A DNA stretch of 63,297 nt, the filler included. It is 8 parts of 8 records of this genome, joined end to end, with 100 filler letters (N's around TTAATTAATTAA, not from the genome) between each part and the next. Parts side by side here need not be neighbours in the genome. Positions count along the whole stretch, not along the records: positions 8,875 to 14,836 come from SRR2962707_3400; 7 more parts are not named here. One strand, 5' to 3'. The notes under the pieces were generated by a model. The model was not told where the DNA came from. It did not search any database and saw only the letters and a program-made list of their open reading frames with translations. Below, in pieces: positions 8,775 through 29,857 of this stretch. Position 1 is the first letter of the stretch. Every line of letters begins with the position of its first letter. Made by a program: the position numbers and the translations under genes.

Positions 8775-8874
8775 NNNNNNNNNNNNNNNNNNNNNNNNNN
8801 NNNNNNNNNNNNNNNNNNTTAATTAATTAANNNNNNNNNNNNNNNNNNNNNNNNNNNNNNNNNNNNNNNNNNNN
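8775..8874. other. Artificial contig spacer (N44-TTAATTAATTAA-N44)
   Basis: Identical 100-bp linker with stops in all frames; genes are truncated and composition changes across it. Confidence 0.98.
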
Positions 8875-9201
8875 TTGCTCGAAGCTCACTACTTTTTGCA
8901 ACCAGTTTTTATGCTTGCGTAAGTAACTAATAGCAATATTGCTGGTTACACTGTGCAACCAAGTAGAAAACTGCGACTGCCCTTCAAAGCTGGCGATTTT
9001 GTGCCACAGTTGCACAAACACTTCCTGAGTTGCATCTTCAGCGTGTTCGCGATCTGCTAATAAACGTAAGCACAAACCATAAACCCGCTTTACATGTAAC
9101 TCATAAAGTGCCGCATAGGCATTTTGATCGCCGCTTTTAACACGTGTTATAAGTGTATCTTCACTTAGCTGTGTAAAGGCCTGTTTTGCATCTATCAACA
9201 T
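8875..9201 (-). CDS. ECF RNA polymerase sigma-70 factor, 3'-truncated
   Basis: GDQNAYAALY, AEDATQEVF, FEGQSQFSTWLHSV (region 2). Confidence 0.9.
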
Positions 9202-9245
9202 CTTAGATGTTGTCCCTTTATGATTATTGTTCTGAATTTAGTGTA

Positions 9246-9275
9246 TTAGACGCAAGGTAGGATCGAAAAGGTTTA
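9246..9275 (-). promoter_or_regulatory. Putative ECF-type (autoregulatory) promoter
   Basis: Minus strand TAAACC-N17-CGTCTAA, matching the AAC/CGT pattern of ECF promoters, 45 bp upstream of the sigma gene. Confidence 0.55.
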
Positions 9276-9297
9276 AATGAAATAAAATTATTTTGAT

Positions 9298-9325
9298 AAA
9301 ACGGCTAACTGAAAAATTAACCGTT
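9298..9325 (-). terminator. Probable terminator of the minor-pilin operon
   Basis: Minus strand AACGGTTAAT...GTTAGCCGTTTT hairpin just after the pilX stop. Confidence 0.5.
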
Positions 9326-9339
9326 ATTAGAGAGGAGGA

Positions 9340-11175
9340 TTATATTGTCGGTTCTATTGGCTCTTCAACAGGCTCTTCTGTTCGTGGTGTTGGAGCTTTA
9401 TAAGACCAGCCAAGAAAAACCAATTTACCTGTAGTGGCATTACCACCGCCATTACTCACATTTGATAAATTTAAATCATGGTGAATACCACCTAGCCCAG
9501 AGGCTGTTACAGTCTTTCCGCGAATAGAGCCACTAAATCCGCCATTAGCCACAACACTTACATCCGTTTTAGGTGCATAAATTGCTGCATATAAATCAGA
9601 ATCAGCACTAATATCTATGCCATTAGCGTCTGAATAACCTGAGTAAATACTAAAAACAGGCTTACCCGTTACAGTTAAACCATGCTTCATAGTGATGGCA
9701 CCTTCAGCTGCATTGATAGCAACAGTACCAGATATATAAAGCGTTAAACTACTGCCAGGTGTGATATCAATATACGAATCACCTGTCATGGTAAAATTAC
9801 CATTTACAATTAGAGTAACATCACCACCGGTTACTTTTAAAATGCCATTATTTAAAGTGAAACTACCGGATTTAAGTACTTTTTGATCAATTTGCTGGTT
9901 AATCGTCGCCAGTTGATAATTTAACGTTGCCGGTGGCTCACCTAACCAATTTTCCCATACATAAGTCCCTGGGTTCTCTATTTTAGATTGACCAATTTCA
10001 GGGGTTAGTTCATAAATCACTCGTGTTTCAGGCTTGCCGACAACCAAGGTTGTGGTACTGTGCTTTACTAAAATATCTTCTGCTGCAGGATCAGTAAGCG
10101 CATTTACAGCGCTTACTATATCAATAGGATCGCATTGCACTTTACTGGCTTCAAAGTTATCTGGATCTTGAAAAGGCACCAATTCAACATTTGGCGATTG
10201 CTTAAACTTAGCATCAGAATACGCAATACCATCTTGCTCTAAGTGCCCTGCTAATCCTGCCGGCGCTTTTAATGCATTACCATACATAACATCAAGTGCT
10301 TCATTATTTTTATTTACGAGGATTGTGCTTGCACTGTTATTTGGAAAAATTAAATCATTATTAGCGCGAATAACCCCCAACACTTTACCTTGTTTCCATA
10401 TTACATCACCAGCCGATAATACGTCACCGCCAACAGCCGTATCTAAGGGAAAGCCTTCAGGTAAAAGTGGGTCTGTAGACACCGTGAAATTAGAATCTAT
10501 GGTGATAGTATTATTTGCACGCAGCGAACCTGTGATAGGTGATGAGCCACTGAAAATAATGCTACCCGTAGCATGTACACTACCCCAGATAGTGGAAGCG
10601 CCTGATAATGTTACGTCTTTGTCTTTATAAACAGTGCCAATAACGGCTGCGGCTTCTGCATTATCTGGATCGTAGTCGCCCAAACTTGAGTCATAACTAT
10701 CGATACGGCCACTTGCACTTAATGAAACCCCTTCACAACCCACAATTGCATTTTCAAAAACAGAGCCTCCTTTACCTGGTGTAAAACCAAACCGTGCCAC
10801 TAAGTTGCTCTGCGCATCGCCTTCATAACGTTCGCCAATACTGGCGATTTCCAGCTCGCCTGCTGCATTTTTACTAATACTTGCGTTGTAGGTTGCATCA
10901 CTACCAATTAAACCTGTGCCTGAGGCATTACCTGTTGCAGCAATTAAGCCATCGATATCTAGAGTTTGATCATTTAGTAAAGCTTGCTGCAATAATTTGG
11001 CTTCTTCAAAAACACCTTTTTCAGCCAGTAACCGACTATTCATTTTCTTTTGAAAGTTACCGCTCATTCGCTCTTGAACAATGTTTTCACGTAATGAATT
11101 AAGTACCACAATACTTGCCATACTGGTGAGGATCAATACTGTTATTAATGTAAAACCGTGCTGTCTTTTATTCAT
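9340..11175 (-). CDS. pilX: Large PilX-like minor pilin (611 aa) with a beta-rich C-terminal extension
   Basis: Class III signal G|FTLITVL lacking Glu5 (PilX/GspK trait), ERMSGNF..K PilX N-terminal helix, position after pilW. Confidence 0.75.
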   Translation of the reverse strand: MNKRQHGFTLITVLILTSMASIVVLNSLRENIVQERMSGNFQKKMNSRLLAEKGVFEEAKLLQQALLNDQTLDIDGLIAATGNASGTGLIGSDATYNASISKNAAGELEIASIGERYEGDAQSNLVARFGFTPGKGGSVFENAIVGCEGVSLSASGRIDSYDSSLGDYDPDNAEAAAVIGTVYKDKDVTLSGASTIWGSVHATGSIIFSGSSPITGSLRANNTITIDSNFTVSTDPLLPEGFPLDTAVGGDVLSAGDVIWKQGKVLGVIRANNDLIFPNNSASTILVNKNNEALDVMYGNALKAPAGLAGHLEQDGIAYSDAKFKQSPNVELVPFQDPDNFEASKVQCDPIDIVSAVNALTDPAAEDILVKHSTTTLVVGKPETRVIYELTPEIGQSKIENPGTYVWENWLGEPPATLNYQLATINQQIDQKVLKSGSFTLNNGILKVTGGDVTLIVNGNFTMTGDSYIDITPGSSLTLYISGTVAINAAEGAITMKHGLTVTGKPVFSIYSGYSDANGIDISADSDLYAAIYAPKTDVSVVANGGFSGSIRGKTVTASGLGGIHHDLNLSNVSNGGGNATTGKLVFLGWSYKAPTPRTEEPVEEPIEPTI

Positions 11176-11699
11176 TACACACCACCAAATGCATTGTTTA
11201 AAATTACATTAGATACTGCAATATCAATGGCAATGGTGTTACCAAATTGAGCTGGTAAATTTTCAGGCCCAACATTAATGGTGACAACATTATTATTAAG
11301 CGCAAAACTCAACTGCGTGACCCCAGTTAGCAACCGCTCGGCAGGTTCAGCCCCTATGGCACACATTAAATTATTACCGGTTAGGCTATAAATCTCAGTA
11401 ACATCAGCACCCGATACGCTGCCATTACAGGTAATAACTCCAGTAGGCTGAGAAATAGTTATTGATGAACCATCTGCGGCAATGGTTGGAGCACTAGGTG
11501 TTTGTTTAATGCTACGCGTAAATACTTTACTAGTGTAACGGATCACTTCTTGCGCATTTTCAAGCTCTTTGCCCACCAAAATAGTACTTTTGATTGCTGA
11601 GTATGACAGGCTAACGCCAGCTAATAAGAAAGCCCCTGCGGCAAGTGCCACCATTAATTCGACAAGGGTATAACCGCATGTTCGTGATGGTACGTTCAT
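11175..11699 (-). CDS. pilW: PilW-like minor pilin
   Basis: G|YTLVELMVA prepilin motif; start set to the ATG in a TAATG overlap with the pilV stop. Confidence 0.75.
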   Translation of the reverse strand: MNVPSRTCGYTLVELMVALAAGAFLLAGVSLSYSAIKSTILVGKELENAQEVIRYTSKVFTRSIKQTPSAPTIAADGSSITISQPTGVITCNGSVSGADVTEIYSLTGNNLMCAIGAEPAERLLTGVTQLSFALNNNVVTINVGPENLPAQFGNTIAIDIAVSNVILNNAFGGV

Positions 11700-12112
11700 T
11701 AAATACACTCTGCAGGTAATTCAGGATAACTGGCATTTAAAGTAATTTGGTTCTCTAATTGAGCAGGATCTTGCTGTTTAATTCTCTCATCGCTCCAAGA
11801 AACTGTAATTTGCATATCATTCGCGTACGCCGCAGGTAAGCTCAGCTGGTAGTCATCGATTTGTGGGTCTAAAGAAGCACGAAAATTAGCATCCGTGAAT
11901 AATGCTGGATTTGTTGTTTGTAATTCACACAATCGTGGCCAAATGCGCTCCAAGGTATTTTGCCCTTGCACCAAAGACACAGTGTAATTAAAACTATTGG
12001 TCGCATATTGCAACGACTTCAGTTGCGCCGCCGCCAAGCCTAATAAAGCAATACCGGCAATAACCACTGAAAGCATTACTTCTAACAACGAAAACCCATT
12101 TTGCTTATTCAT
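11699..12112 (-). CDS. pilV: PilV-like minor pilin
   Basis: G|FSLLEVM, GLAAAQLKSLQ, ITVSW; TAATG overlap with the fimT stop. Confidence 0.78.
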   Translation of the reverse strand: MNKQNGFSLLEVMLSVVIAGIALLGLAAAQLKSLQYATNSFNYTVSLVQGQNTLERIWPRLCELQTTNPALFTDANFRASLDPQIDDYQLSLPAAYANDMQITVSWSDERIKQQDPAQLENQITLNASYPELPAECI

Positions 12113-12561
12113 TACGCACACGCCGCTGACTGTTCAGCCAACCAATTTTGGCCGCTTTTTAAGATACAAAGGTAATAATCTACCGTGTTGTCGTTACCAT
12201 CTTTAATCAATATTTCGCTAGCCGCAGATATTTCACCTGTAGACCATACGGTACGATCGACTAACCCAACCGTTACACCTTGGTGTTGGATCACAAATTC
12301 TTTTAAAACAGTGTCAACGCCATCAACAGCTGCTTTTACTTGCCAATTAGTACCGCTGACCACCAACTTCACATCACGGTCACGTTTGACGGCTTCACTG
12401 CGCGCATATTTATAGACACTGTTGAGTTGATTAGCGGTAGTCACTACACGATCTTGCATTATTTGCTGACTAAATGATGGAAACGCTAACACCGCCATAA
12501 TTGCGACAATACCAACTACGACCATTAGTTCAACTAATGTAAAACCAGTTGTTCGAGTCAT
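12112..12561 (-). CDS. fimT: FimT/FimU (GspH-like) minor pilin
   Basis: G|FTLVELMVV, AFPSF, ARSEAVKR. Confidence 0.82.
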   Translation of the reverse strand: MTRTTGFTLVELMVVVGIVAIMAVLAFPSFSQQIMQDRVVTTANQLNSVYKYARSEAVKRDRDVKLVVSGTNWQVKAAVDGVDTVLKEFVIQHQGVTVGLVDRTVWSTGEISAASEILIKDGNDNTVDYYLCILKSGQNWLAEQSAACA

Positions 12562-12563
12562 TG

Positions 12564-13001
12564 TTATTCCCAGCAGTTATTCGCGTCAGCTGATTGTGTT
12601 CCATCATGCTTGATCACTAAAGCACCACAGCGATCTCCCGCTTGGGCAGAGCCTAGTTTTGGGGTTGCAGTTAAGGTAAACGCGCGGCTTTTAAAATTAG
12701 CGTCCGCTGCCGCACCTGTAGCACGGTTTAACGCTGTATAAGTAAACGTGTAAAAATCTGTACTTACGCCTGCATCAAAAGTATTTGGATAGCCACCATT
12801 GCGTGAATAAATACGTTCCAGTGATGCGCCATGTTGCAGCATAACTTGTTGAATATCAGCACGACGGCTACGCTCCATATGTTCGACATATGAAGGCATG
12901 GCAACGCTATATAAAATGCCTAAAATGGCGACTACGATTAGTAACTCTATTAATGTAAAACCAGCAGGTGGTTTGGTATTTCTCATCATGTGTTGTTTCA
13001 A
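12564..13001 (-). CDS. pilE: PilE-like type IV minor pilin
   Basis: G|FTLIELLIVVAI, PSY...RSRRAD, FTLTATP, Q..DRCG...CW. Confidence 0.88.
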   Translation of the reverse strand: MKQHMMRNTKPPAGFTLIELLIVVAILGILYSVAMPSYVEHMERSRRADIQQVMLQHGASLERIYSRNGGYPNTFDAGVSTDFYTFTYTALNRATGAAADANFKSRAFTLTATPKLGSAQAGDRCGALVIKHDGTQSADANNCWE

Positions 13002-13037
13002 TTCTTACATCCTTAACACTATGCCCAGTGCACAAAC

Positions 13038-13067
13038 AATATACACTGACAGCGCTGTCACTGTCAA
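13038..13067 (-). promoter_or_regulatory. sigma70 promoter of the pilE operon with a LacI/NagR-type operator in its spacer
   Basis: Minus strand TTGACA (13067-13062)-N18-TATATT (13043-13038); perfect palindrome TGACAGCGCTGTCA at 13047-13060. Confidence 0.75.
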
Positions 13068-13241
13068 TTAACTGAAACATTGTTACAACATAGCCACATT
13101 TTAGCAGTTATAAATCATTAGTTTTAATTATTTGAATTTTACAACAGGTAACATAGTTAACCAAGGTAGGTACAATACTGTATTTTACCCAATTTTGATA
13201 CTAAAGAGTGATGAGGCTTGGATGTGGTAATCATTTTAAAC

Positions 13242-13273
13242 AAAAAAGCCGCGCTTTTCAGCACGGCTTTTTT
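13242..13273 (-). terminator. Rho-independent terminator after rplI
   Basis: AAAAAAGCCGCGC-TTTTCA-GCACGGCTTTTTT bidirectional-type hairpin. Confidence 0.85.
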
Positions 13274-13287
13274 CGCTTAATTAAAAA

Positions 13288-13740
13288 TTAAGCTTCAGCG
13301 ATCACGATTACTTTGATAGTAGCCGTTACTTCTGAATGAACTGCGATTGATACGTCAAATTCGCCAGTCTCACGGATAGTACCTAGAGGTAAACGAACTT
13401 CTGACTTAGCAACTTCAACACCAACAGCTGAGATAGCGTCAGCGATGTCGCGAGTACCGATAGAACCGAATAACTTACCTTCGTCACCGGCTTTTGATAC
13501 TAATGTAACTTCAGCTAATGCTTCAAGTTTATCAGCGCGTGCTTGTGCAGCAACAAGCTGGTCAGCGATTTTCGCTTCAAGCTCAGCACGACGTGCGTCA
13601 AAAGTTTCAATGTTAGCTTTAGTTGCAGGAACTGCCTTACCTTGTGGGAAAAGGAAGTTACGTGCGAAGCCAGATTTAACTACAACCTGGTCACCTAGGC
13701 CACCTAGGTTTGCGATCTTATCTAGTAGAATAACTTGCAT
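13288..13740 (-). CDS. rplI: 50S ribosomal protein L9
   Basis: [39 protein letters not shown]. Confidence 0.99.
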
Positions 13741-13776
13741 GTTTCTACACCTTTTAAAAACGTGTTAATCCGCTGC

Positions 13777-14004
13777 TTACTTATGTAAGTCAGTGTATGG
13801 AAGAAGGGCTAAGTAGCGAGCACGCTTGATAGCAGTTGCTAGCTGGCGCTGGTATTTAGCGCTAGTACCTGTGATACGGCTAGGTACGATTTTGCCACTT
13901 TCTGTAACATAGTTTCTAAGAGTAGCTAGATCTTTATAATCGATTTGTTGTACGCCTTCCGCTTTAAAGCGGCAGAACTTACGACGTCTGAAATAACGTG
14001 CCAT
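13777..14004 (-). CDS. rpsR: 30S ribosomal protein S18
   Basis: [13 protein letters not shown]...IDYKD...[10 protein letters not shown]. Confidence 0.99.
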
Positions 14005-14016
14005 GAGATAAATTCC

Positions 14017-14334
14017 TCAAATAATTCTTTCTATATGCTGAGCATGCAAAACCAATTGGCTAAGGCCGTTACGACCTTCGTGACGGTTTAAAAAACCGCT
14101 CACTTGCAATGCCTGCCCAACGTGCAAATGTTGAGTCTGTTGTTGCATTTGCTTACCACTGGCAACCACTTGAAGCCTAACATAACTATTACGGTTAAGG
14201 TCTGCTTCAACTTGCATTGATTTATGTTCTACAACAAAAATACAATGCGGGATACCAGCAGGGCTTTGGCTAAACTTAGGTGTTTTACAAACAACCCCAG
14301 AGATAATCAGCTGATTCATAAAAGGACTGACCAT
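14017..14334 (-). CDS. priB: Primosomal replication protein N
   Basis: SPAGIPHC..V.EH.S.Q.EA and LVLHA..IE; lies between rpsF and rpsR; start placed at the ATG behind AAGGT (alternative ATG at 14319). Confidence 0.93.
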   Translation of the reverse strand: MVSPFMNQLIISGVVCKTPKFSQSPAGIPHCIFVVEHKSMQVEADLNRNSYVRLQVVASGKQMQQQTQHLHVGQALQVSGFLNRHEGRNGLSQLVLHAQHIERII

Positions 14335-14388
14335 ATGGTTTACCTTAAAATTCTCGCGGATCAAACGCCATGCTTGGACTCAAAACAA

Positions 14389-14730
14389 TTAAGCAGCTGG
14401 TGCTTCTTTCTTCTCTTCTCTTACAAGAGGAGATGCTTCAGTTACAGCGTCTTTAGTACGCATAACTAAGTTACGAAGCACTGCATCGTTGTAGCGGAAA
14501 GTAGTTTCTAGCTCGCTGATTACTTCAGTAGGTGCTTCAACGTTCATAAGAACATAATGAGCTTTATGAAGCTTGTTGATTGGGTATGCCAATTGACGGC
14601 GACCCCAGTCTTCAAGACGGTGGATAGTACCACCAGCTTCAGTGATAGAACCAGTATAACGTTCGATCATACCAGAAACTTGCTCACTCTGATCTGGGTG
14701 AACCATGAATACGATTTCGTAATGACGCAT
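14389..14730 (-). CDS. rpsF: 30S ribosomal protein S6
   Basis: [18 protein letters not shown]...[12 protein letters not shown]. Confidence 0.99.
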
Positions 14731-14792
14731 GGATATTCCTTACGGTTAATAGAGCCTTCTACCGTTTCAGCCGGTCGGTTTAAGGCAAGGAA
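14731..14792 (-). promoter_or_regulatory. S6:S18 ribosomal-protein leader (autoregulatory RNA)
   Basis: TTCCTTGCCT...AGGCT...CCGTAAGGAA..ATG; 5' end pairs with the SD, and there is a CCG next to the SD as in the gammaproteobacterial rpsF leader. Confidence 0.75.
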
Positions 14793-14814
14793 TTAATATT
14801 AATTAGGCCGAAAT

Positions 14815-14828
14815 GAGCGCGCATTTTA
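14815..14828 (-). promoter_or_regulatory. -10 box with GC-rich discriminator of the rpsF promoter
   Basis: Minus strand TAAAAT followed by GCGCGCTC; the -35 box is cut off by the contig end. Confidence 0.55.
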
Positions 14829-14836
14829 CGCTTAGT

Positions 14837-14936
14837 NNNNNNNNNNNNNNNNNNNNNNNNNNNNNNNNNNNNNNNNNNNNTTAATTAATTAANNNNNNNN
14901 NNNNNNNNNNNNNNNNNNNNNNNNNNNNNNNNNNNN
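14837..14936. other. Artificial contig spacer
   Basis: N44-TTAATTAATTAA-N44. Confidence 0.98.
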
Positions 14937-14974: not shown

Positions 14975-15463
14975 ATGAGCGATAATCTGATTTTATCCCA
15001 ACCCAAAGTCGATCAAATCATTCGACGCATCGCCTATCAAATCCATGAAAACAACATGGACGAGGAGCTGGTATTGGTAGGTGTGGATACAGGCGGGAGA
15101 AAGCTGGCAGATCAGATCAATAAAACACTCAAGGAAGTGGCAGGTAATAAGGCCATCTGCCTCACTATTTCTCTGGACAAAGAGAATCCGTTGAATAAAG
15201 ACATACTTATCGATGGAGATACAAGTGATTTGAGCGGAAAGACAGTAATCCTTTGTGATGATGTGCTCAACAGTGGACGGACACTAGCATACAGCCTTAC
15301 CAAACTATTAACCCTGAAAGTAAAGAAAGTAGAAACAGCCGTTCTGGTACTCAGAACACATGGCCGATTCCCGATTTATGCCAACTACAAAGGGTATGAA
15401 CTCTCCACTACCATCAAAGAGCATGTGGAGGTAAGATCTGGTGAGGGCGTATTCCTCAACTAA
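14975..15463 (+). CDS. PyrR-like phosphoribosyltransferase-domain protein
   Basis: IRRIAYQIHE, VILCDDVLNSGRTL PRPP-binding loop, AVLV.R.H..FPI. Confidence 0.85.
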   Translation: MSDNLILSQPKVDQIIRRIAYQIHENNMDEELVLVGVDTGGRKLADQINKTLKEVAGNKAICLTISLDKENPLNKDILIDGDTSDLSGKTVILCDDVLNSGRTLAYSLTKLLTLKVKKVETAVLVLRTHGRFPIYANYKGYELSTTIKEHVEVRSGEGVFLN

Positions 15464-16503
15464 TAATCTTTGTACAAATTTGGCTTTCTGGTGAGCATTT
15501 CCAGACTCATTGCTACCATATCTCCCATGCACTCACAAGTTAGGAAGTCCTCTTCTTCATAAAAGTCTGCTAGTTCTTTTCTTAGCCTTTGAATGTTTTC
15601 AGGTTTGGAAAGTCGCTCCTTCTTCATAGCACTCAAAAGATCATCTATTCGTTTCTTTTCAACCTTAAGCCTGTTGGCAATGTTGGAGCGTTCCTCTCTT
15701 TGGTACTGTCTTACCGTCTCAGGCGTCATGTGCTTCAGCCCAATCTTAATGATCGGATTATTCTGCGTATAATATTGAGGCAAATAGATTGCACGTCGAC
15801 CCTCATAAGACTGCTGGTCAAAATCAATGGCCCTCAACCGGTAATCTACATCCTCGAAATCAGGAGTGATGTCAATGACAAAGTTGCTACTGTGCATGTC
15901 ACCTAATAAGCGAACAAAACATCGCTCATTGAACTTGACAAACTCTTTGGAGAGTCGAATCTCGTTGACATTAGGATCTCCAAGGTATTGTTTGATAAAA
16001 AGCTCAGCCGGTACACCAACGATGTGTTCTTCTATCAGCGTTTCTTGATTAACTACGTAGCTGATTTTATTGGGAGAGAGCAGATGCTCCAACTCAAGCC
16101 CATAGATTCTAGATGCATCCGCTTTTTTGATGTAGAAATAGTCGAAGTTGTCATTGATTTGGTTCACCACTCGCACCCGAAAAGGTTGCGTATTTCCATA
16201 CACACATAAGTCGACCCGATCTATGATCAGATGATCCATTACCGACAAGTCACCATCGGCCTTCATGATCGCATACACTTTTTTCAGAGATGCGTTAATA
16301 TGCTCCATGTCACCCTGCGGAAAGAAAATCGTCTCCCAGAGCGTATCATTGCCCTTTTTGTCATAGAGTGGGATGGAATTGTCGTACCTAAGCAAGTCTG
16401 CATAGTAAATAGGCAAGTCAATTTCACGATCGTATTTTTTGATATACGATCTCAGATGTTTGCTCACAGGAAAAATTTCCTTCTTCTTACTAATAATGGC
16501 CAT
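15460..16503 (-). CDS. Hypothetical protein with atypical (HipA/PI3K-like) kinase motifs
   Basis: FYIKK, LELE, LLGDMHSSNFV and RAIDFD in kinase order. Confidence 0.6.
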   Translation of the reverse strand: MAIISKKKEIFPVSKHLRSYIKKYDREIDLPIYYADLLRYDNSIPLYDKKGNDTLWETIFFPQGDMEHINASLKKVYAIMKADGDLSVMDHLIIDRVDLCVYGNTQPFRVRVVNQINDNFDYFYIKKADASRIYGLELEHLLSPNKISYVVNQETLIEEHIVGVPAELFIKQYLGDPNVNEIRLSKEFVKFNERCFVRLLGDMHSSNFVIDITPDFEDVDYRLRAIDFDQQSYEGRRAIYLPQYYTQNNPIIKIGLKHMTPETVRQYQREERSNIANRLKVEKKRIDDLLSAMKKERLSKPENIQRLRKELADFYEEEDFLTCECMGDMVAMSLEMLTRKPNLYKDY

Positions 16504-16512
16504 AAGATTCCA

Positions 16513-17589
16513 CTAGTTGGTCAGGTTTTCCAGGAATAGTTGCTCCGTTTGAGCACTCCAATCCTGAAATTCAGTACTGATGTCTTTGTGAGTAGGAAGA
16601 TAATTTAAGAGCAACTCCAAATCAAACTTATCACTCGAAATACCTGCACCGGCTTTTTTAGCATCCAATGCATTGCATGCCTGCTCATAATGTCCTTCCA
16701 CTGGCACCATCAAAACGGGTTTGCCTAAATACATGGCTTCACACACCGATTCAAAACCTGCTGTAGTTAAGTATCCTCTACATGAAGCCATGTAGTCGAT
16801 AAACTTTTTGTCATCAAGTCGATGGAAGGTCAGCGTGTCGTCTATTTTGAGCTCGGTTGGAGCATCTTTTTTATCCCAGAAACAGTGAATGGGAATATCA
16901 GGGTGCTTTTTATGAAAATTTTCTACCTGGGTGGAGTACCCATGATTGACCATATAGGCAAGAAAATGAGCTCCTTTGGTCGGTGAAGACTGCTTGATGA
17001 TATCCCGAAGAAGAGGTGGAACGACGATCAGCTTCTTTTTAGGTTCATCATTCATCTTATGAAATGAAAGACATAGAAGCTTCTTGGCTCCATACCCGGC
17101 TAGTTTATTTCCCTTGAGCAACGAATTGCGATCATAGATTCTACCTTTTGGAAATTCAAATTCAGAATGATTTAGCAAAAACTGGTGAGCTATTGCGATG
17201 TGATCAATTTTTGGACGCTTCAGTATGAAAAATAGACCTCCCAAAAAATCATAAAAATTGATGATCGCATCCGGGCTTTCTTTTTTAACTATTTGATCTA
17301 TTTGATTGACACTCTTGAAAAATGTTCTAACCCTTGAGAGATTCACCAGCAGCGTTTTGAAAACACTAACCGATTTATTTTGTCTGTCAGTTACAAAATT
17401 CGGACTCTCCAGTTGGGTAATAGGAGCTTCAATTTTGTTGGAAAAGAAAGCTGGAAGTTCCCTTCGTTTACTTTTCCCAACAATTACATGAGAAACAGTA
17501 TGCCCATTTGAGGTAAGCATTTGAAACAGCGAAATCGCCTGGGTCATATGACCTCTACCTTCTCCCTGGACTATAAAAATGAAATTCAT
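16513..17589 (-). CDS. GT-B glycosyltransferase (MJ1255/VC2487-like, GT28-related)
   Basis: VQGEGRGHMT, TTAGFESVCEAMYLGKP, GHYEQACNA. Confidence 0.85.
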   Translation of the reverse strand: MNFIFIVQGEGRGHMTQAISLFQMLTSNGHTVSHVIVGKSKRRELPAFFSNKIEAPITQLESPNFVTDRQNKSVSVFKTLLVNLSRVRTFFKSVNQIDQIVKKESPDAIINFYDFLGGLFFILKRPKIDHIAIAHQFLLNHSEFEFPKGRIYDRNSLLKGNKLAGYGAKKLLCLSFHKMNDEPKKKLIVVPPLLRDIIKQSSPTKGAHFLAYMVNHGYSTQVENFHKKHPDIPIHCFWDKKDAPTELKIDDTLTFHRLDDKKFIDYMASCRGYLTTAGFESVCEAMYLGKPVLMVPVEGHYEQACNALDAKKAGAGISSDKFDLELLLNYLPTHKDISTEFQDWSAQTEQLFLENLTN

Positions 17590-17697
17590 ATTTGCAGTTG
17601 TGGTTGGGTATCAGTCTGGTTTTAAATGATCTGAAGAAATAGAGAATTGCAAAGCACTAATTGATTCTATCTCCTGTCTTCTGTCTTCTGTCTACTT

Positions 17698-19062
17698 TTA
17701 TGACGCAAACTTAAGTAGAAACTCAGTGCCTTCTCCTATCTGGGACTTTGCGGAAATGTTACCTCCATGGTTCCTCATGATTTGTTTGGAAAGGCTTAAT
17801 CCGATACCGGAACCATTCTTTTTAGTCGTAAAAAATGGAATGAAAATCTTCTTAAGCGCCTCTTCCTCAATGCCTGTACCATTGTCGGCAATGGTGATAA
17901 AGGCACCTCCTGAGGGGGATGACATAGCGGTAATGGTAAGGATCTTATTTTCTTTTTCTCCTGCTGTCAATGCCTGAACAGCGTTTTTAACCACATTGAT
18001 GATTACCTGCTCGATTTGTTCTTTATCAATGTTGATGGTCAGGTCAGGTTTCACGGATAAATCAACTTGAATGCCATTCGTTTCAATATCCTGTCGTAGT
18101 AGCATGAGTACGTGACTGAAAATTTCATCCACTTTAGTGTTTTCAAGAGTAGGTAGCTTGATTCTGGTCATGTTTCTAAAGTCAGATACAAACTTGATCA
18201 AGCTTTCACTGCGATTGTGAATAGTTTTGACAGCCAGGTAAAAATCCTCGATGGTTTCATCCTCAATCTGATTGATGTTAGTTCCATTTTCCAGGAATTC
18301 TGAAAGATCCGATTCAACAGTTGCAGCAAGTGATGAAATGGGTGTTACCGAATTCATGATTTCGTGAGTAAGCACACGGATCAGGTTTTGCCACGCTTCC
18401 ATTTCTTTCTCCTCCAATTCCGATTGAATGTTCTGGATTGAAATCAGTTTGAATGCTTTGCCTCGGAGTGAAAGTTCAATGGCATATACAGCTAGCTGCA
18501 CCTCATCATCATTCTTGGAGATTTTAATCAGATCTCTTCCGCCGGTTTTCAGATCAAGAATTGATTCGGTTAAGGCAGGATGATCTTTGGAAATCTGCCT
18601 AATATTTTTGATTAGCTTGATTCCAAGAAGTTTCTTGGCAGCATTATTTATTATTTGCACCTCACCATCACTATCGAATGTGATGATGCCTATCCCAATG
18701 TGCTGAACAATGGTTCTTAAATACTGGTGTTGTGCCTCTTTATCAGCTCGTATTTCCCTGAATTTTCTCAGAATCTCATTGAATTCATGATAGAGTAAAT
18801 CCCTACTAGAACCGGTATCTCGTTCCGGATAGGTATTTGTGAAATCATCGTAGTGAATGCTTTCAAGGAAGTGAATGATCTCTCGGTTAGACTTCTCTAA
18901 GAAATTATATAGGTAGTATACCTCGATACTAATGAGGATGAATACCAAAAATTTGGTGAAGAAGTAGGTTTCTGTGTAATACAAAGATGTAAACAAAAAA
19001 ACTGTCGCCAGCAGAACGACCAATCTGACAAGGAGCTGAAACCGAAAGGATTTATAAACCAT
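17698..19062 (-). CDS. NtrY-like sensor histidine kinase (2 TM, PAS, HisKA, HATPase)
   Basis: LTHEIMNSVTPI, NVVKNA, DNGTGI, FIPFFTTKKNGSGIGL. Confidence 0.92.
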   Translation of the reverse strand: MVYKSFRFQLLVRLVVLLATVFLFTSLYYTETYFFTKFLVFILISIEVYYLYNFLEKSNREIIHFLESIHYDDFTNTYPERDTGSSRDLLYHEFNEILRKFREIRADKEAQHQYLRTIVQHIGIGIITFDSDGEVQIINNAAKKLLGIKLIKNIRQISKDHPALTESILDLKTGGRDLIKISKNDDEVQLAVYAIELSLRGKAFKLISIQNIQSELEEKEMEAWQNLIRVLTHEIMNSVTPISSLAATVESDLSEFLENGTNINQIEDETIEDFYLAVKTIHNRSESLIKFVSDFRNMTRIKLPTLENTKVDEIFSHVLMLLRQDIETNGIQVDLSVKPDLTINIDKEQIEQVIINVVKNAVQALTAGEKENKILTITAMSSPSGGAFITIADNGTGIEEEALKKIFIPFFTTKKNGSGIGLSLSKQIMRNHGGNISAKSQIGEGTEFLLKFAS

Positions 19063-20429: not shown

Positions 20430-20529
20430 NNNNNNNNNNNNNNNNNNNNNNNNNNNNNNNNNNNNNNNNNNNNTTAATTAATTAANNNNNNNNNNNNNNN
20501 NNNNNNNNNNNNNNNNNNNNNNNNNNNNN
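20430..20529. other. Artificial contig spacer
   Basis: N44-TTAATTAATTAA-N44. Confidence 0.98.
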
Positions 20530-20559
20530 CCTCGTAGGCTTGCCTCGAGGGAGTTGATT
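20530..20559 (-). repeat. Partial copy of a Flavobacteriaceae REP/MITE-like repeat
   Basis: Reverse complement AATCAACTCCCTCGAGGCAAGCCTACGAGG matches the copies at 37106, 49127 and 54588. Confidence 0.75.
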
Positions 20560-20565
20560 GTAAGT

Positions 20566-20601
20566 AAAAAGCCCTTTGAAAGTTGACTTTCAAAGGGCTT
20601 T
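20566..20601 (-). terminator. Terminator after pruA
   Basis: AAAGCCCTTTGAAAGT-TG-ACTTTCAAAGGGCTTT inverted repeat with a T tail on the minus strand. Confidence 0.85.
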
Positions 20602-20623
20602 AACGACAGTATTTATAAGATTT

Positions 20624-22252
20624 TTATTCTCCTAAAAAAGGATATCTATAGTCCTCTGGAGAAACAAAAGTTTCTTTAATTAATCTCGGTGACACCCAAC
20701 GTAGAAGGTTTTGAGAAGAACCAGCCTTGTCATTTGTGCCAGAAGCTCTTGCTCCTCCAAATGGCTGCTGACCTACCACGGCACCTGTTGGTTTATCGTT
20801 AATATAGAAGTTTCCAGCACAGTTTTGTAAAGCAGTAGTGGCTTCTTCTATAGTATATCTGCATCCAGAGAAAACGGCTCCAGTAAGTGCATACTCAGAG
20901 GTTCCGTCTACCAATTCTAAAGTTTCGCTCCATTTGTCGTCTTCATATACATAAATGGTAACAATAGGACCGAATAGCTCGGTAGTCATTGTTTTGTATT
21001 TTGGATCTGTTGTGCGAATAACTGTAGGATGAATAAAATATCCTTTTGATTTATCATAGGTTCCTCCAACAACAATTTCAGCTTCTTTATCTTCTTTTGC
21101 TTGGTCAATATAACTAGCAAGCTTGTCAAAAGATCCTTCGTGGATTACTGCAGTAATAAAGTTCTCCATATTATTAGGAGCACCAATTTTAAACGACTCT
21201 ACATCTGTTTTAACAAAAGCTAGCACTTCATCAGCTAAAGATTTTGGTAAATATACACGAGATGCAGCACTACATTTCTGACCTTGGAATTCAAAAGCAC
21301 CTCTAGTAATAGCAGTTGCTACTTGTTTAGCATTAGAAGATGGATGAGCGATAATGAAATCTTTTCCTCCAGTTTCTCCAACAATTCTAGGGTATGTTTT
21401 ATAGGTATCAATGTTGTTACCTATTTTTTTCCATATTCCTTTAAATACATTTGTAGAACCAGTAAAATGAATTCCAGCAAAATCTGGACTAGCAAGAACT
21501 GTATCGGTAATCATTTCTGGGTCTCCATAAACAACGTTAATTACGCCATCTGGTAGTCCAGCTTCTTTAAAAATATCTACAATTACTTTAGCAGAAAAAA
21601 TTTGACTATCACTAGGTTTCCAAATAACTACATTCCCCATCATAGCTGCACTTGCAGGTAAATTCCCAGCAATTGCGGTAAAGTTGAAAGGAGTAATGGC
21701 ATAAACAAAACCTTCTAAAGGTCTGTATTCTACTCGATTCCATAAACCTTTGTCGGATTCTGGTTGATCGTCGTAGATTTTTGACATATACTCTACATTG
21801 AATGTAAGGAAATCAATCAACTCACAAGCACTATCAATTTCTGCTTGATGAATATTTTTTGATTGCGCAATCATAGTAGCTGCATTTATCTTATCTCTGT
21901 AAGGACCTGCAATTAAATCTGCAGCCTTTAAGAAAATTGCAGCACGTTGTTCCCAATTTAAAGCAGCCCATTTCTTTCTTGCTTCTAAATTGTTTGCAAT
22001 AGCTTTTTCAACATGTGATTTTTCCGCTAAATGATATTTTCCTACAATGTGTTGGTGATCATGTGGAGGAGATAAAGGTTTTGTATTACCTGTTTTAATT
22101 TCCTCGCTACCGATATACAACGGAACGTCAACGGTGCTATTAAAAAATTCGTCATACTGCTTCAACACAGCCTCTCTTTCTGTTGAGCCTGGAGCATACG
22201 ACTTTACGGGTTCGTTAACTGCCGCAGGAACATGAAAAAAGCCTTTTCCCAT
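20624..22252 (-). CDS. pruA: L-glutamate gamma-semialdehyde (P5C) dehydrogenase
   Basis: NEPVKSYAPG, ITPFNFTAI, GETGGKDF, FEFQGQKCSA, QQPFGGARASGTNDKAGS. Confidence 0.96.
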   Translation of the reverse strand: MGKGFFHVPAAVNEPVKSYAPGSTEREAVLKQYDEFFNSTVDVPLYIGSEEIKTGNTKPLSPPHDHQHIVGKYHLAEKSHVEKAIANNLEARKKWAALNWEQRAAIFLKAADLIAGPYRDKINAATMIAQSKNIHQAEIDSACELIDFLTFNVEYMSKIYDDQPESDKGLWNRVEYRPLEGFVYAITPFNFTAIAGNLPASAAMMGNVVIWKPSDSQIFSAKVIVDIFKEAGLPDGVINVVYGDPEMITDTVLASPDFAGIHFTGSTNVFKGIWKKIGNNIDTYKTYPRIVGETGGKDFIIAHPSSNAKQVATAITRGAFEFQGQKCSAASRVYLPKSLADEVLAFVKTDVESFKIGAPNNMENFITAVIHEGSFDKLASYIDQAKEDKEAEIVVGGTYDKSKGYFIHPTVIRTTDPKYKTMTTELFGPIVTIYVYEDDKWSETLELVDGTSEYALTGAVFSGCRYTIEEATTALQNCAGNFYINDKPTGAVVGQQPFGGARASGTNDKAGSSQNLLRWVSPRLIKETFVSPEDYRYPFLGE

Positions 22253-22283
22253 ACTTTCTGGATTTAATACATTAAAATTTTAT

Positions 22284-22291
22284 CAAAGGTA
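22284..22291 (-). promoter_or_regulatory. Bacteroidota -7 promoter element (TAnnTTTG) for pruA
   Basis: Minus strand TACCTTTG about 30 bp upstream of the start. Confidence 0.55.
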
Positions 22292-22338
22292 GTAAATGCC
22301 AGAGGGTTTAAAAAGTAAAATTGTGTTAAAGAGAAGGC

Positions 22339-22725
22339 TTAATTTAAAGCGAAGGGAGCATGGAGTTTAAATGTAGGAATAATCACTCGAAACCTTCTTG
22401 TTGAGGTAAAATTGACCATATTGTAATGACCTCTCATGGCTCCAATTGGGGATGTTAATAAACAGCCAGAACTGTATGTGTGAGATTCTCCTGGTTTTAA
22501 AACTGGTTTTTTTCCTATAACTCCTTCGCCATCAATTATTTCAATTTCATTTAAAGCATCAAAAATTTGCCAATGTCGAGAGGTGAGTTGTACGGAATCC
22601 TTGCTTTGATTCTCAATAGTAATTTTGTAACCAAAGGCATAGTGAAGCTTGTAGTTTTTGAAGAAAGTGCCTTCAAAACTAGTCTTTACAGAAATCTTTA
22701 TGCCTTTAGTAATTTGAGTAATCAT
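22339..22725 (-). CDS. apaG: ApaG protein
   Basis: VQLTSRHWQI.D, GEGVIG..P.LKPG....YSSGC.L. Confidence 0.95.
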   Translation of the reverse strand: MITQITKGIKISVKTSFEGTFFKNYKLHYAFGYKITIENQSKDSVQLTSRHWQIFDALNEIEIIDGEGVIGKKPVLKPGESHTYSSGCLLTSPIGAMRGHYNMVNFTSTRRFRVIIPTFKLHAPFALN

Positions 22726-22730
22726 ATATA

Positions 22731-23819
22731 TTAAAACGTAAATGCGCCCACTAAAACTATTATAGTTGTTGATATTGTAGCTAAAATAATGAAAATAGTA
22801 TTAATGTATATGAATTTAACAATAGTTTTTGTTCTGCTTTCCTTATAAAAACCTCGCATAGATTTATATAGGTATAGAAAGAATATTAAAATTGCCACTC
22901 CATGAAGGTTAATATTGAAAAGCCATTTAATAAGCAAAGTAAGGGTTAATAGGATGGTGAAAAGTGTTTGGGTGTGAAAACTAAAAATGATGTGATCTAT
23001 ATAGTGGAATTTTTCTGACGAATATACAAGCCATATAAAAGCAGAAAAAATAGGAAGAAGAATAAAAATAATAAATGGTAATTTAGCTATTAAAGTTGCA
23101 AAAAAGCTTCCTGGGTGGTGATATGTTTTGTAAAAGCTTTTAGCTAGTTTAAATGTAATCTTATTTTCAATGCTACTTTCTATTTTTAGGTGTTTTAGCG
23201 CTTCATCATATTCATAATATTTTTTTCGCTTAATATCATCATAAAAAAAATCAATCTTATCGTAAGTTCTGTTAATAAAGAGTTTGTTGTTTAACTTTTC
23301 AAATTGAATTTTTGGTGCTGTAGTTGTCTCTAGGGCTTCTTTTGGTTGGTATTTTTTTATGAGTTGATCTATTTCTTTTTTGTCTTCATCAGAAATAGAA
23401 CTTTCTTTTAAGGAGGCAAGAGTGTTTTCAATAAATAAAGAGTCTTTAGTAATATAATCGTTTACGGTATTATCTATATTATCAAAGTCGCTACTGTAGC
23501 TTATCATTAAAAAGTAAACAATGGTAACGCTTAAAAAGAAGCGGAATGGATTTGTGTAAGTGGCTCTTTTTCCGCTAACAAATTCCGTAGTTATTTTTCC
23601 AGGTCTTAAAATTAAGGCAGTTAGCGTTTTTCGAAGTTTGGAATCGTAAGAAAAAATGCTTGAAAAAAACTCTTCTACCATGTCTAGTAGGGTAAGTTTT
23701 TTTGTGCTATTTATTTGTCCGCAATAAGGGCAGTAGGAGTCGCTTTTCTCAAGAGGAAGTTCACAATTCAAACATTTTGTACCCCTATATTTTAAAGATG
23801 TTCTGTCGCTTTTGTTCAT
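22731..23819 (-). CDS. DUF3667-family membrane protein
   Basis: N-terminal CLNC...YCPYCGQ zinc ribbon, L..RPG..T.E...GKR..Y..PFR.F and C-terminal TM helices. Confidence 0.85.
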   Translation of the reverse strand: MNKSDRTSLKYRGTKCLNCELPLEKSDSYCPYCGQINSTKKLTLLDMVEEFFSSIFSYDSKLRKTLTALILRPGKITTEFVSGKRATYTNPFRFFLSVTIVYFLMISYSSDFDNIDNTVNDYITKDSLFIENTLASLKESSISDEDKKEIDQLIKKYQPKEALETTTAPKIQFEKLNNKLFINRTYDKIDFFYDDIKRKKYYEYDEALKHLKIESSIENKITFKLAKSFYKTYHHPGSFFATLIAKLPFIIFILLPIFSAFIWLVYSSEKFHYIDHIIFSFHTQTLFTILLTLTLLIKWLFNINLHGVAILIFFLYLYKSMRGFYKESRTKTIVKFIYINTIFIILATISTTIIVLVGAFTF

Positions 23820-23833
23820 TGTATAGGGTTTTC

Positions 23834-25090
23834 TTAATTGGAGATGTTTACAGAAGAGGCACTTCCAACCCCAATTAGGCTGTCGTAATTATCTCCAAAG
23901 TCTCTATAGTAAACTAAAATAGTGTAATTGTTTTCTGTTTCCCAGAAGCTACCGCTTATAAAATTGAAATCTACAATTCCTTTTTCGTTAACTTTTACAA
24001 ATTTATAATTGTAAAAACCTTGTTTTAGTAAAATAGCAGTATTAAGGGTGTTTGTTTTATCGTTTAATTTGAGTCGGTTTTCTTCTGTTAATTGGTAGTT
24101 ATTAAATTTTCCGTATACATAAATATTGTCTAATCCTATGGCGTTAGTATAGGCTAGGCTAAAGCGAACAAATGAATAATCTGCTTCTCTGTCAACATTC
24201 TGTTCAACACCATCAATGGTTCTTATGTAGAAATCTCCATTGATATCTGGATTGTAGGTGTAAGCCTTGTCTTTTCTAGACTCGTTAGTGTATAGGTAAT
24301 GATTGTATCTATTAGTAAGATCTACTCTTGCAATGGCATTACTAGAAACACGAATTTCCTTAGTGTCGAACCAAAAATATTCATTCCCACCTTCAAAAGA
24401 AGTCTCTTTGTCGTATTTGTAAATAAGTTGGTTCCCCGACATAAATTGGGGTTTAATACCAGAAATAATATAGTTGAAGTTGCTGTTTTGAAGAATTGCA
24501 ATTTTTACTTCTTGTTGCGGATTTATGAGTTCGTAATCTGGATGATTAATTGTGAATTGCAAGCGCTGAAGCTTGTCAATATTTTTCATGTCTCGAGAAC
24601 GTTTAACAACCGTGCCAACGCCAACAGCATCTTTATAAACCAAGAAGCGCCTAGAGAAAATGAGGTCTCCTTTGTTGTCTTTTACTTTTAGAATGTAATT
24701 ACCAGTAACGCGTAATTTTGTTTGCTGATTTGGAAGTGTGAGTTGGTAATTAGTATAGGGTTGGATGGTGGCAAGAGAATTTTCATAATTCATAATTCTT
24801 TGGTTATCAACACCAGTTAGGAATTGCGATTTCAATAATTTGGAAGGAGTCCAGTTGTAATTGCAATGTTCAATTTCATAATAATAATCTTTTTCATCAG
24901 CATATAAATCGTCAAAAGAGAGCGTCATTTTTTCGCCAATTTTAACAATAGGAAATTGGTCTCCTTCTTTGTCCGATTTAAATACAATCGACTTTATGTT
25001 TTCGGGCGGAGGAACTTCGTTTTGAATTTGAGAAAAAGAGAAGTTACTCAGGAGCAATATGGTAACGAAAAGGTTGTAGTTGAGCTTCAT
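23834..25090 (-). CDS. DUF5103-family periplasmic protein (T9SS plug-like)
   Basis: Signal peptide, LSFDDL, HCNYNW..S, F.GGNEY..FD, DING, LLKQGFYNY, ETENNY.ILVYYR; start placed at MKLNYN. Confidence 0.8.
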   Translation of the reverse strand: MKLNYNLFVTILLLSNFSFSQIQNEVPPPENIKSIVFKSDKEGDQFPIVKIGEKMTLSFDDLYADEKDYYYEIEHCNYNWTPSKLLKSQFLTGVDNQRIMNYENSLATIQPYTNYQLTLPNQQTKLRVTGNYILKVKDNKGDLIFSRRFLVYKDAVGVGTVVKRSRDMKNIDKLQRLQFTINHPDYELINPQQEVKIAILQNSNFNYIISGIKPQFMSGNQLIYKYDKETSFEGGNEYFWFDTKEIRVSSNAIARVDLTNRYNHYLYTNESRKDKAYTYNPDINGDFYIRTIDGVEQNVDREADYSFVRFSLAYTNAIGLDNIYVYGKFNNYQLTEENRLKLNDKTNTLNTAILLKQGFYNYKFVKVNEKGIVDFNFISGSFWETENNYTILVYYRDFGDNYDSLIGVGSASSVNISN

Positions 25091-25201
25091 CAGCAAAAAA
25101 TATTTTGGGATAAATATACGCAAAATACATTCTGGATTGATTTCAGGTAAATTCACTTTGAAAAATATAGGTTTTTATTATGCGAACTCTGTTTTAATTA
25201 T

Positions 25202-25209
25202 TAAATTTG
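25202..25209 (+). promoter_or_regulatory. Bacteroidota -7 promoter element of the nqr operon
   Basis: TAAATTTG about 40 bp upstream of nqrA. Confidence 0.6.
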
Positions 25210-25249
25210 CACGAATTTTTGAGTTAACTAATTTCATTAGATAGATAGC

Positions 25250-26593: not shown

Positions 26594-26605
26594 ATAAAAG
26601 AAGAT

Positions 26606-27763: not shown

Positions 27764-27765
27764 TT

Positions 27766-28488: not shown

Positions 28489-28491
28489 TAT

Positions 28492-29217: not shown

Positions 29218-29242
29218 GCAATAAGCTAAAAAACATTAAAAA

Positions 29243-29857
29243 ATGGAATACGTAAACCTTTTTGTAAGAAGTATTTTTATAGAGAACATGATTTTTGCCT
29301 ATTTCTTAGGGATGTGTTCTTACCTAGCGGTTTCTAAAACAGTTAAAACTGCAGTAGGTTTAGGAGCCGCTGTAATTTTTGTTTTAGCAATTACGGTGCC
29401 TATTAACTTCTTATTAGATAATTATTTATTAAAACCGGGTGCGTTAACTTGGTTAAGTCCAGAGTACGCAAACATCGATCTAAGCTTTTTGAGTTTTATC
29501 ATGTTTATAGCCGTAATTGCATCAATGGTGCAATTGGTGGAAATGATAGTAGAAAAATTTGCACCTGCATTATACGGAGCTCTTGGTATTTTCTTACCGC
29601 TAATTGCTGTAAACTGTGCTATCCTTGGAGGTTCTTTATTTATGCAACAAAAAGATTTCGGAGGAGTTTCGGAAGCTTTTACTTATGGATTAGGATCTGG
29701 AATAGGTTGGTTCTTGGCAATTTTAGCTATTGCTTCAATTAGAGAGAAAATTACTTACTCAAATGTTCCTGCACCATTAAGAGGGTTAGGAATTACTTTT
29801 ATCATAACAGGACTTATGGCTCTTGGGTTCATGAGTTTTATGGGAATCAAATTATAA
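29243..29857 (+). CDS. nqrE: Na+-NQR subunit E
   Basis: [35 protein letters not shown]. Confidence 0.97.

Follow-up and report, generated by a model that had tools for sequence, protein, structure and literature searches.

The stretch of DNA analysed here, called the window in what follows, is 63,297 nucleotides (nt) long and is made up of eight contigs joined by seven 100-nt linkers. We are concerned with a palindrome of 14 base pairs (bp) found in the promoter of an operon encoding type IV minor pilins, and with the nature of the protein that would bind it. This palindrome, hereafter the box, is carried by the 5,962-nt piece at positions 8875-14836. This piece shares 99% identity with a contig from Pseudoalteromonas sp. 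9NakV-03 (locus L001) and 91% with P. prydzensis DSM 14232 (L002). The Pseudoalteromonas origin put forward in an earlier, sequence-only reading of this DNA is thereby upheld. BLAST of the closest loci to the window confines the match to 8875-14836, and the eight pieces come from different organisms, as judged from the spread of their GC content (0.33 to 0.58). Since the pieces are joined by linkers, arguments drawn from neighbours across a linker are void. The features of the pilin contig are as follows.

13062..13067, minus strand: -35 hexamer TTGACA of the operon promoter (consensus scan; invariant in 12 of 12 aligned promoters)
13047..13060, no strand assigned: 14-bp CG-centred palindrome TGACAGCGCTGTCA in the promoter spacer, putative LacI-family (NagR-like) operator
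13038..13043, minus strand: -10 hexamer TATATT (consensus scan and promoter alignment)
12564..13001, minus strand: pilE-like type IV pilin, PilBac1-like (Pfam ComP_DUS and N_methyl; 4D40 match)
12112..12561, minus strand: fimT/gspH-like minor pilin (Pfam GspH and N_methyl)
11699..12121, minus strand: pilV-like minor pilin (Pfam N_methyl; weak TIGR02523 PilV match, 33.7 bits for a cutoff of 52.2)
11175..11708, minus strand: pilW-like minor pilin (Pfam N_methyl; name from operon position only)
9340..11175, minus strand: PilX/ComZ-like large tip pilin of 611 amino acids (Pfam DUF7305; N-terminal pilin helix, then beta-solenoid)
8875..9201, minus strand: extracytoplasmic function (ECF) sigma factor gene, partial (Sigma70_r2 only; ends at the contig boundary)
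13236..13280, minus strand: intrinsic terminator of the upstream rpsF-priB-rpsR-rplI operon, hairpin and U-run (folding)
13288..13740, minus strand: rplI, gene of ribosomal protein L9 (Pfam Ribosomal_L9, N- and C-terminal domains), whose presence upstream serves to define synteny

The five open reading frames (ORFs) downstream of the promoter are separated by 2, -10, -10, and -1 nt. Four of them carry prepilin N-termini (Pfam N_methyl) and the fifth encodes the DUF7305 protein. The gene order pilE-fimT-pilV-pilW-pilX of the sequence-only reading thus agrees with five packed, Pfam-supported ORFs. The head domain of the pilE-like protein matches Protein Data Bank (PDB) entry 4D40, the Shewanella oneidensis pilin SO_0854 (PilBac1), with E = 1.7e-8. 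Relatives of the 611-residue protein bear the name "pilus assembly PilX family" in their sources, and Pfam Bactofilin matches are found among them. The layout is that of a PilBac-type operon, in which four prepilin genes are followed by the gene of a large pilin-like protein with a beta-helical or bactofilin-like region. The first gene probably starts at the TTG codon at 13001. The ATG at 12989 is a less likely start, since it is not conserved: P. prydzensis reads CTG-ATA where the window reads ATG-ATG, whereas TTG/GTG is kept. An AAGGA motif lies 8-9 nt upstream of this TTG, and the leader preceding the prepilin glycine then has 14 residues.

Upstream of the pilin operon are found the genes rpsF-priB-rpsR-rplI (Pfam), which end with a strong terminator (-25.8 kcal/mol, z = -6.2; 0 of 200 shuffled sequences fold equally well). 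As this terminator shields the pilin genes from read-through out of rplI, they must have a promoter of their own. On the minus strand, TTGACA (13067..13062), a single g, TGACAGCGCTGTCA (13060..13047), gtg, and TATATT (13043..13038) follow one another. With their 18-nt spacer, the two hexamers give 11 of 12 consensus matches and form the best of six promoter-like sites detected by a consensus scan of 12800-13400. Hence, the perfect 14-bp palindrome that had been placed between TTGACA and TATATT with an 18-bp spacer is indeed there, provided that the minus strand is read. The exact 14-mer is present once in the 63-kb window; with up to three mismatches allowed, there are four matches, for 1.8 expected. 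In total, nine perfect 14-nt palindromes, three of them CG-centred, occur in the window as compared to about 4.6 expected. A perfect 14-nt palindrome is by itself not beyond chance.

The case for a function comes from the comparison of related loci. A profile derived from 30 aligned PilX-like proteins was used to search genome contigs, and the best 80 loci of 115 relatives were analysed. Loci were considered syntenic if rplI is found upstream or, where the contig is cut, if the ECF sigma gene is found downstream (tblastn table). Mismatches were counted over the 12 fixed positions of TGACANCGNTGTCA. Sixty-eight of the 80 loci are syntenic, all of them from Pseudoalteromonas, and 12 are non-syntenic. 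The box is present at most 150 nt upstream of the first prepilin motif in every syntenic locus (68/68), without mismatch in 25 cases, with one mismatch in 36 and with two in 7, these last being the P. phenolica-group loci L023-L029, which have TGACAGCGCTGTTT. Conservation upstream of orthologous operons, which the sequence-only reading had proposed as a check, is therefore very strong. At most one mismatch being allowed, only 4 off-target matches occur in 1,596,318 bases, for about 3.5 expected by simple arithmetic from a uniform composition. In 60 unique 74-nt segments anchored on the box, ten of the 14 positions of the box have an information content of 1.8-2.0 bits, as compared to at most 1.1 bits outside; the consensus of these segments is aaTGACAGCGtTgTCatTt. 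The PilX-like proteins of the syntenic loci go down to 32% identity, and the flanking intergenic sequence is not conserved. A function of the box is argued because its conservation, and not its palindromy, exceeds chance.

None of the 12 non-syntenic loci, which are paralogous or belong to other genera, has the box upstream of its first pilin. Some of them (L031, L048, L080, L051, L053, L057, L079) belong to genomes that have the syntenic set as well, and represent a second or third PilBac-like set there; the others come from Shewanella sp. (L036, L039), Thalassotalea (L037), Colwellia (L063), and Alteromonas (L074). The extra PilBac-like sets comprise a ComP_DUS pilin, a GspH-like pilin, and a DUF7305 protein, to which two further prepilins are added in some cases, and none of these sets has the box; in L079, the set is situated close to a phage-integrase-domain gene (15217-18357). 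In five loci of the P. luteoviolacea clade (L072:20828, L075:15045, L071:20827, L078:20824, L070:14896), a second box-like site, either TGACAGCGCTGGCA with one mismatch or TGACAGCGCTGGTA with two, was observed about 160 nt upstream of a PAS-GGDEF-EAL gene and about 12.7 kb from the pilin box. This site could tie the same regulator to cyclic di-GMP turnover, or it could be due to chance.

The pattern of variation tells what kind of element is conserved. Only two of the 68 sites, those of the window's species and of L012, are perfect palindromes. Twelve sequence variants are found among the 68 sites, and in each variant one side of a base pair has changed, never both, so that there are no compensatory changes. 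The left half, TGACAGCG, is almost invariant and the right half is variable (TGTCA, TATCA, TGTCT, TGTTT). Because conservation collapses outside the 14 bases and compensatory changes are lacking, the box has the character of a protein-binding site and not of an RNA stem. We regard it as almost certainly a conserved site for a regulatory protein.

The position of the box relative to the promoter differs between clades. In 20 of the 68 loci, according to a strict pattern, and also in L014 with TATAGT, the -35 TTGACA is followed by one base, the box, two or three bases, and a TAnnnT -10 element. In the remaining 47-48 loci, including those of P. rubra, P. luteoviolacea, P. piscicida, P. citrea, P. 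aurantia, and P. phenolica, the box lies 32-72 nt before the prepilin glycine codon, just 5' of the ribosome-binding site, and ends 10-25 nt before the start codon. A simple consensus scan of two of these loci, L072 and L040, detected no consensus promoter around the box. The classic repressor geometry described earlier, with the operator between -35 and -10, is thus valid for the window and some 20-21 of the 68 loci, whereas in the others the box stands 5' of the ribosome-binding site. An operator that is constant in sequence and shifts relative to the promoter would be expected of a repressor, as transcription could be blocked from either position. As for the sequences around the promoter, the 5' leader TGTTTGTGCACTGGGCATAGTGTTAAGGATGTAA (window 13003-13037, minus strand) differs hardly at all among ten species of the window's clade, in which the region 5' of the -35 element is, by contrast, variable. 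The sameness of the leader may reflect recent common ancestry or a second regulatory element.

As to the family of the binding protein, the box has an even length, a central CG, and TG...CA ends, and fits the catabolite-responsive element (cre) pattern TGWNANCGNTNWCA, as printed in PMC10992428. The same paper describes the identical 14-mer as a designed ideal site for CcpA, which shifts it. In the literature searched, the exact 14-mer was found only in this Bacillus cre-design paper. The LacI-type assignment of the sequence-only reading, which relied on the CG-centred palindrome, is therefore well supported by the site itself, though the 14-mer is close to generic. On the strength of these sequence features, the box is very probably a LacI-family operator.

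Within this family, NagR, which responds to N-acetylglucosamine (GlcNAc), is the most likely candidate, with a probability of about 0.6 for NagR as the binding protein and GlcNAc as the signal. Several published observations point to it. The predicted NagR regulon of Shewanella MR-1, MR-4, MR-7, and ANA-3 includes an entry "SO0854-SO0850, type IV pilin assembly" (Rodionov 2011, PMC3223726, Additional file 4), and NagR is listed with SO0854 (PilE), SO0853 (FimT), SO0852 (PilV), SO0851 (prepilin-like), and SO0850 (PilX) by Leyn 2016 (PMC5343134). The operon studied here is homologous to SO0854-SO0850, as judged from the 4D40 match and the shared architecture, so that its orthologue stands under NagR in these lists. 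The supplement of Ravcheev 2014 (PMC4052901) gives NagR orthologues in Pseudoalteromonas sp. TW-7 and in P. tunicata. Gel-shift data describe S. oneidensis NagR as a repressor released by GlcNAc, and in Xanthomonas the genes induced by GlcNAc are under NagR control. In the other clades of Pseudoalteromonas, where promoter hexamers leave the flanks free, the box is surrounded by (A/T)AA and TTt. These AA-box-TT flanks would fit the NagR box, for which no printed consensus was found.

Several points weigh against NagR. In the nagR deletion mutant of S. oneidensis, SO0854 was raised only 2.2±1.6-fold, as compared to 14.5-fold for nagP, 50.2-fold for nagK, 15.8-fold for mcp, 10.6-fold for omp, and 5.3-fold for cbp (PMC3223726, Additional file 6), and although an SO0854 fragment is labelled in the gel shift, the text and legend give binding for five other fragments and not for this one. 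The tables of Leyn 2016 (PMC5343134) have the pilin genes in one taxonomic group only, of 4-5 genomes. The Alteromonadales NagR regulog, with three genomes, cannot be this group; hence the pilin genes are not listed there, though two of its genomes are from Pseudoalteromonas. Neither a printed NagR matrix nor a consensus was found in the literature searched, and the assignment to NagR in particular leans on the Shewanella listing. A search of the 10-kb flanks of the 80 loci (1.6 Mb) with motifs taken from general knowledge, which makes for a weak negative, gave no LacI-type helix-turn-helix. The two loci of Shewanella sp. 10N.286 isolates (L036:3965-7479, L039:8150-11662) have the same five-gene operon, with a PilX-like protein 38% identical to that of the window, and lack the box in the promoter. 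Matches to the box in L036 and L039 were considered as promoter sites and dropped, as the perfect-core TGACATCGCTGTCA lies inside the fimT-like ORF. The same flank search, with the same limit on its motifs, gave no GH18 signature. That the window has no LacI or nag gene carries no weight, as it consists of eight unrelated contigs.

The box could also be a LacI-family operator bound by another protein, such as a GntR-like gluconate repressor or another LacI paralogue, in which case the pilus would answer to a different sugar. The generic nature of the 14-mer as an ideal LacI/CcpA site (PMC10992428) leaves room for this, and Pseudomonas GntR, itself of the LacI family, protects AGACAGCGCTGTCT and GAGACAGCGCTATCT, the first of which has the same inner 12 bases as the box. 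Moreover, several LacI-family regulators are listed for Pseudoalteromonas genomes, namely BglR, MalR, ManR1, ScrR, GalR, GntR, and TreR; the entry for P. haloplanktis TAC125 has GalR, GntR, and MalR and lacks NagR. The restriction of the pilin genes to one taxon group in the RegPrecise-based table can also be read in favour of another regulator. Against this explanation, the outermost bases of the box are unlike those of the GntR site, T...A here and A...T there. Jiang 2022 (PMC9537276) reports that none of the chitinolytic Pseudoalteromonas strains tested, including P. prydzensis, grew on gluconate and that all grew on GlcNAc, which argues against a gluconate repressor. Finally, the homologous Shewanella operon is assigned in the published lists to NagR and to no other LacI regulator. 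A LacI-family protein other than NagR is thus possible, if unlikely.

A regulator outside the LacI family, or another role of the DNA in recombination, methylation, or the downstream ECF sigma system, appears quite improbable. Such a role would agree with the constant presence of the ECF sigma gene after the operon in syntenic loci and with the 47-48 of 68 loci in which no consensus sigma-70 promoter flanks the box, and the search turned up no cognate regulator. Yet the even length, the central CG, and the TG..CA ends are a LacI signature, the conserved stretch is limited to 14 bp, the size of a dimer site, and ECF promoters are not palindromic. An RNA hairpin, acting as terminator or attenuator of rplI read-through or as a leader structure, is less probable still. 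A terminator scan does flag a 10-pair stem followed by a T-rich stretch, and the palindrome folds as RNA at -14.5 kcal/mol (z = -2.6), but a far stronger terminator already follows rplI, the box is upstream of the predicted transcription start in the window's clade, and 66 of the 68 sites are imperfect, their one-sided, uncompensated changes indicating that sequence and not pairing is conserved. A chance palindrome without function, for which the excess of palindromes in the window could be invoked, is effectively refuted by the presence of the box at all 68 syntenic loci, across PilX-like proteins of low identity and unconserved flanks.

P. prydzensis ACAM 620 is chitinolytic. When it is grown on colloidal chitin, one of the proteins in its secretome is PPRY_a4161, annotated as "type IV pilin" and carrying ComP_DUS and N_methyl domains, identified from two unique peptides in both repeats at 0.015% riBAQ (relative intensity-based absolute quantification). 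PPRY_a4161 is the orthologue of the first gene of the operon, because the adjoining tag PPRY_a4162 is ribosomal protein L9; the first pilin is 93% identical in L002 (P. prydzensis). Hence, the first pilin is made during growth on chitin. The secretome covers the chitin condition only, which counts against its use as evidence for induction. PPRY_a4156, a "hypothetical protein" with six peptides, may be part of the cluster.

The products of the operon would be those of a pilus tip set. FimU-PilVWXY1E-type minor-pilin sets prime pilus assembly and end at the tip, and by analogy "alternative tip set" is a fair description of the proteins encoded here. The description is reinforced by the box-less paralogous sets and by a separate PilY1 cluster in P. 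prydzensis. An AlphaFold model of the 611-residue protein, built from the 30-protein alignment A1, has a mean predicted local distance difference test score (pLDDT) of 79.6 and a predicted template-modelling score (pTM) of 0.71, and consists of a long N-terminal helix followed by beta-solenoid domains. Its best fold match in the PDB is Thermus ComZ, a large minor pilin linked to competence (6QVI; E = 3.9e-8, probability 1.00, template-modelling (TM) score 0.18-0.24), followed by the C-terminal domains of Caldicellulosiruptor tapirins (E = 0.02, probability 0.72). The model supports the view that the fifth protein is a large tip pilin with a beta-solenoid, and the fold matches hint at a binding role. 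In P. haloplanktis, P. arctica, and P. rhizosphaerae (L010, L011, L012), the small pilins are 78-94% identical to those of the window and the flanking sigma factor 96-100%. The PilX/ComZ-like tip protein (window 9340-11175) is only 42-43% identical to its counterparts in these three species, a divergence which, from the sequences, looks like allelic replacement between close relatives. FimT-type DNA binding by the fimT-like pilin was considered and dropped, as the protein, whose C-terminus ends ...NWLAEQSAACA, lacks the motif GRxR, which is the C-terminal motif of FimT DNA-receptor pilins (Braus et al., 2022).

Taken together, the mechanism that we propose is as follows. A LacI-family repressor would bind the palindrome as its operator and thereby control the PilBac-type minor-pilin operon of Pseudoalteromonas; this repressor is most likely NagR, which responds to GlcNAc. 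In the window's clade, the box takes up the spacer of a sigma-70 promoter close to the consensus, ahead of the predicted transcription start, so that a dimer bound there would obstruct RNA polymerase. In the majority of the other species, where the box is found between the likely transcription start and the ribosome-binding site, the dimer would act as a roadblock. In the presence of the effector, the repressor would leave and the alternative pilus-priming and tip proteins would be made; the effector would be GlcNAc from chitin breakdown if the protein is NagR. The identity of the binder, the sign of regulation, the effector, and the ligand of the tip protein are inferred. The most extended form of the proposal, in which a GlcNAc-released repressor re-tips the type IV pilus with the ComZ-like beta-solenoid pilin during chitin degradation, the tip gripping chitin or capturing DNA, is a bold conjecture that we consider clearly unlikely as a whole.

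The link between NagR and pilin genes is plausible but not new. Its novelty was overstated by implication in the sequence-only reading, since the homologous Shewanella SO0854-SO0850 operon already stands in the predicted NagR regulon; that prediction is 15 years old and the single measurement made there is weak. What appears to be new, from sequence comparison, is the extension of the GlcNAc-pilus link to Pseudoalteromonas, with a much stronger conservation than in the Shewanella case. In the literature searched, part of it by title or listing, no paper linking NagR or any LacI box to Pseudoalteromonas pilin genes was found. Where Alteromonadales had only a weakly supported prediction in four Shewanella genomes, an operator kept at every syntenic locus of the genus gives a much firmer and directly testable lead.

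In the turnover of marine carbon, attachment to particles of chitin is a key step, and Pseudoalteromonas ranks among the major degraders of this polymer. Vibrio uses chitin signals to regulate its pili, its attachment, and its uptake of DNA. The present data suggest that the choice of tip proteins on the pilus is made by a sugar repressor, and they make the ComZ-like beta-solenoid pilin a candidate receptor for chitin or DNA. If the extended proposal holds and the tip captures DNA, chitin-induced natural competence would exist outside Vibrionaceae, controlled by NagR rather than by ChiS/TfoX; if the tip grips chitin, it would parallel the tapirins that grip cellulose. In either case, the fast allelic replacement of the tip protein would reflect selection on the tip ligand. 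If the regulator is not NagR, the site would still mark a conserved switch for an alternative pilus tip.

Two neighbouring matters complete the description of the window. The partial ECF sigma gene (9201..8875) had suggested a truncation by insertion, an idea that was rejected, as the gene merely ends at the contig end; it is full length, with r2 and r4 regions, in L072. Where the locus is complete, a full ECF sigma gene invariably comes after the pilin operon, and then a small ORF, which is possibly an anti-sigma factor, and a gene for a DUF4097 protein (L072:12066-14059). Elsewhere, the contig at window 20530-31306 (GC 0.35) encodes, for example at 23834-25156, a type IX secretion "plug" protein (NCBIfam NF052315, E = 5e-141). 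The plug gene adjoins an nqrA-F operon, and this contig looks Bacteroidota-like and is unrelated to the Pseudoalteromonas contig. The linkers between the pieces are located as follows.

8775-8874, 14837-14936, 20430-20529, 31307-31406, 41483-41582, 49027-49126, 54640-54739: linkers, each made of an N-run, TTAATTAATTAA, and an N-run

The closest known system is that of S. oneidensis, in which SO_0854-SO_0850 correspond to PilBac1-5. Gorgel et al. (2015) describe the first of these as a pilin, the next three as putative pilins, and the last as an adhesin pilin that contains a bactofilin motif. The five-gene order is shared with the Pseudoalteromonas operon, and the head of the first pilin matches 4D40. 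A LacI-type NagR site is predicted in both cases, for Shewanella in the regulon listings. The two differ in genus and in context, the Pseudoalteromonas operon lying between rplI and the ECF sigma gene, and in distribution, as the Shewanella operon is reported in 4 of the 16 genomes studied, whereas the boxed operon is found at 68 of 68 syntenic Pseudoalteromonas loci. With the NagR sites of Shewanella, Alteromonadales, and Xanthomonadales in general, the candidate operator has in common a CG-centred palindrome overlapping the promoter. The core of the NagR box presumably matches the palindrome. The known core targets of NagR are nag, chitinase, TonB-receptor, and chemotaxis genes, not pilins.

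In Vibrio cholerae, the chitin-regulated pilus and chitin-induced competence are governed by ChiS, a sensor, together with TfoX, an activator, and this circuit acts on the major pilin gene and on the genes for pilus assembly. The Pseudoalteromonas case would be similar in that products of chitin breakdown switch on a function of the type IV pilus, again in a marine gammaproteobacterium. In contrast, the putative repressor-type operator found here would control only the minor-pilin and tip set. The FimU-PilVWXY1E operon of Pseudomonas aeruginosa is a minor-pilin operon whose products are thought to prime assembly and to sit at the pilus tip. It resembles the operon described here in gene order and in the sizes of the four small pilins, but the latter has no PilY1 and its PilX-like protein is itself large; P. 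prydzensis has PilY1 in a separate cluster, listed as PPRY_a0947-0949. Finally, the modelled 611-residue protein shares with Thermus thermophilus ComZ (6QVI) a pilin helix and a beta-solenoid; the TM-scores are low, at 0.18-0.24, and the sequence identity is about 10%.

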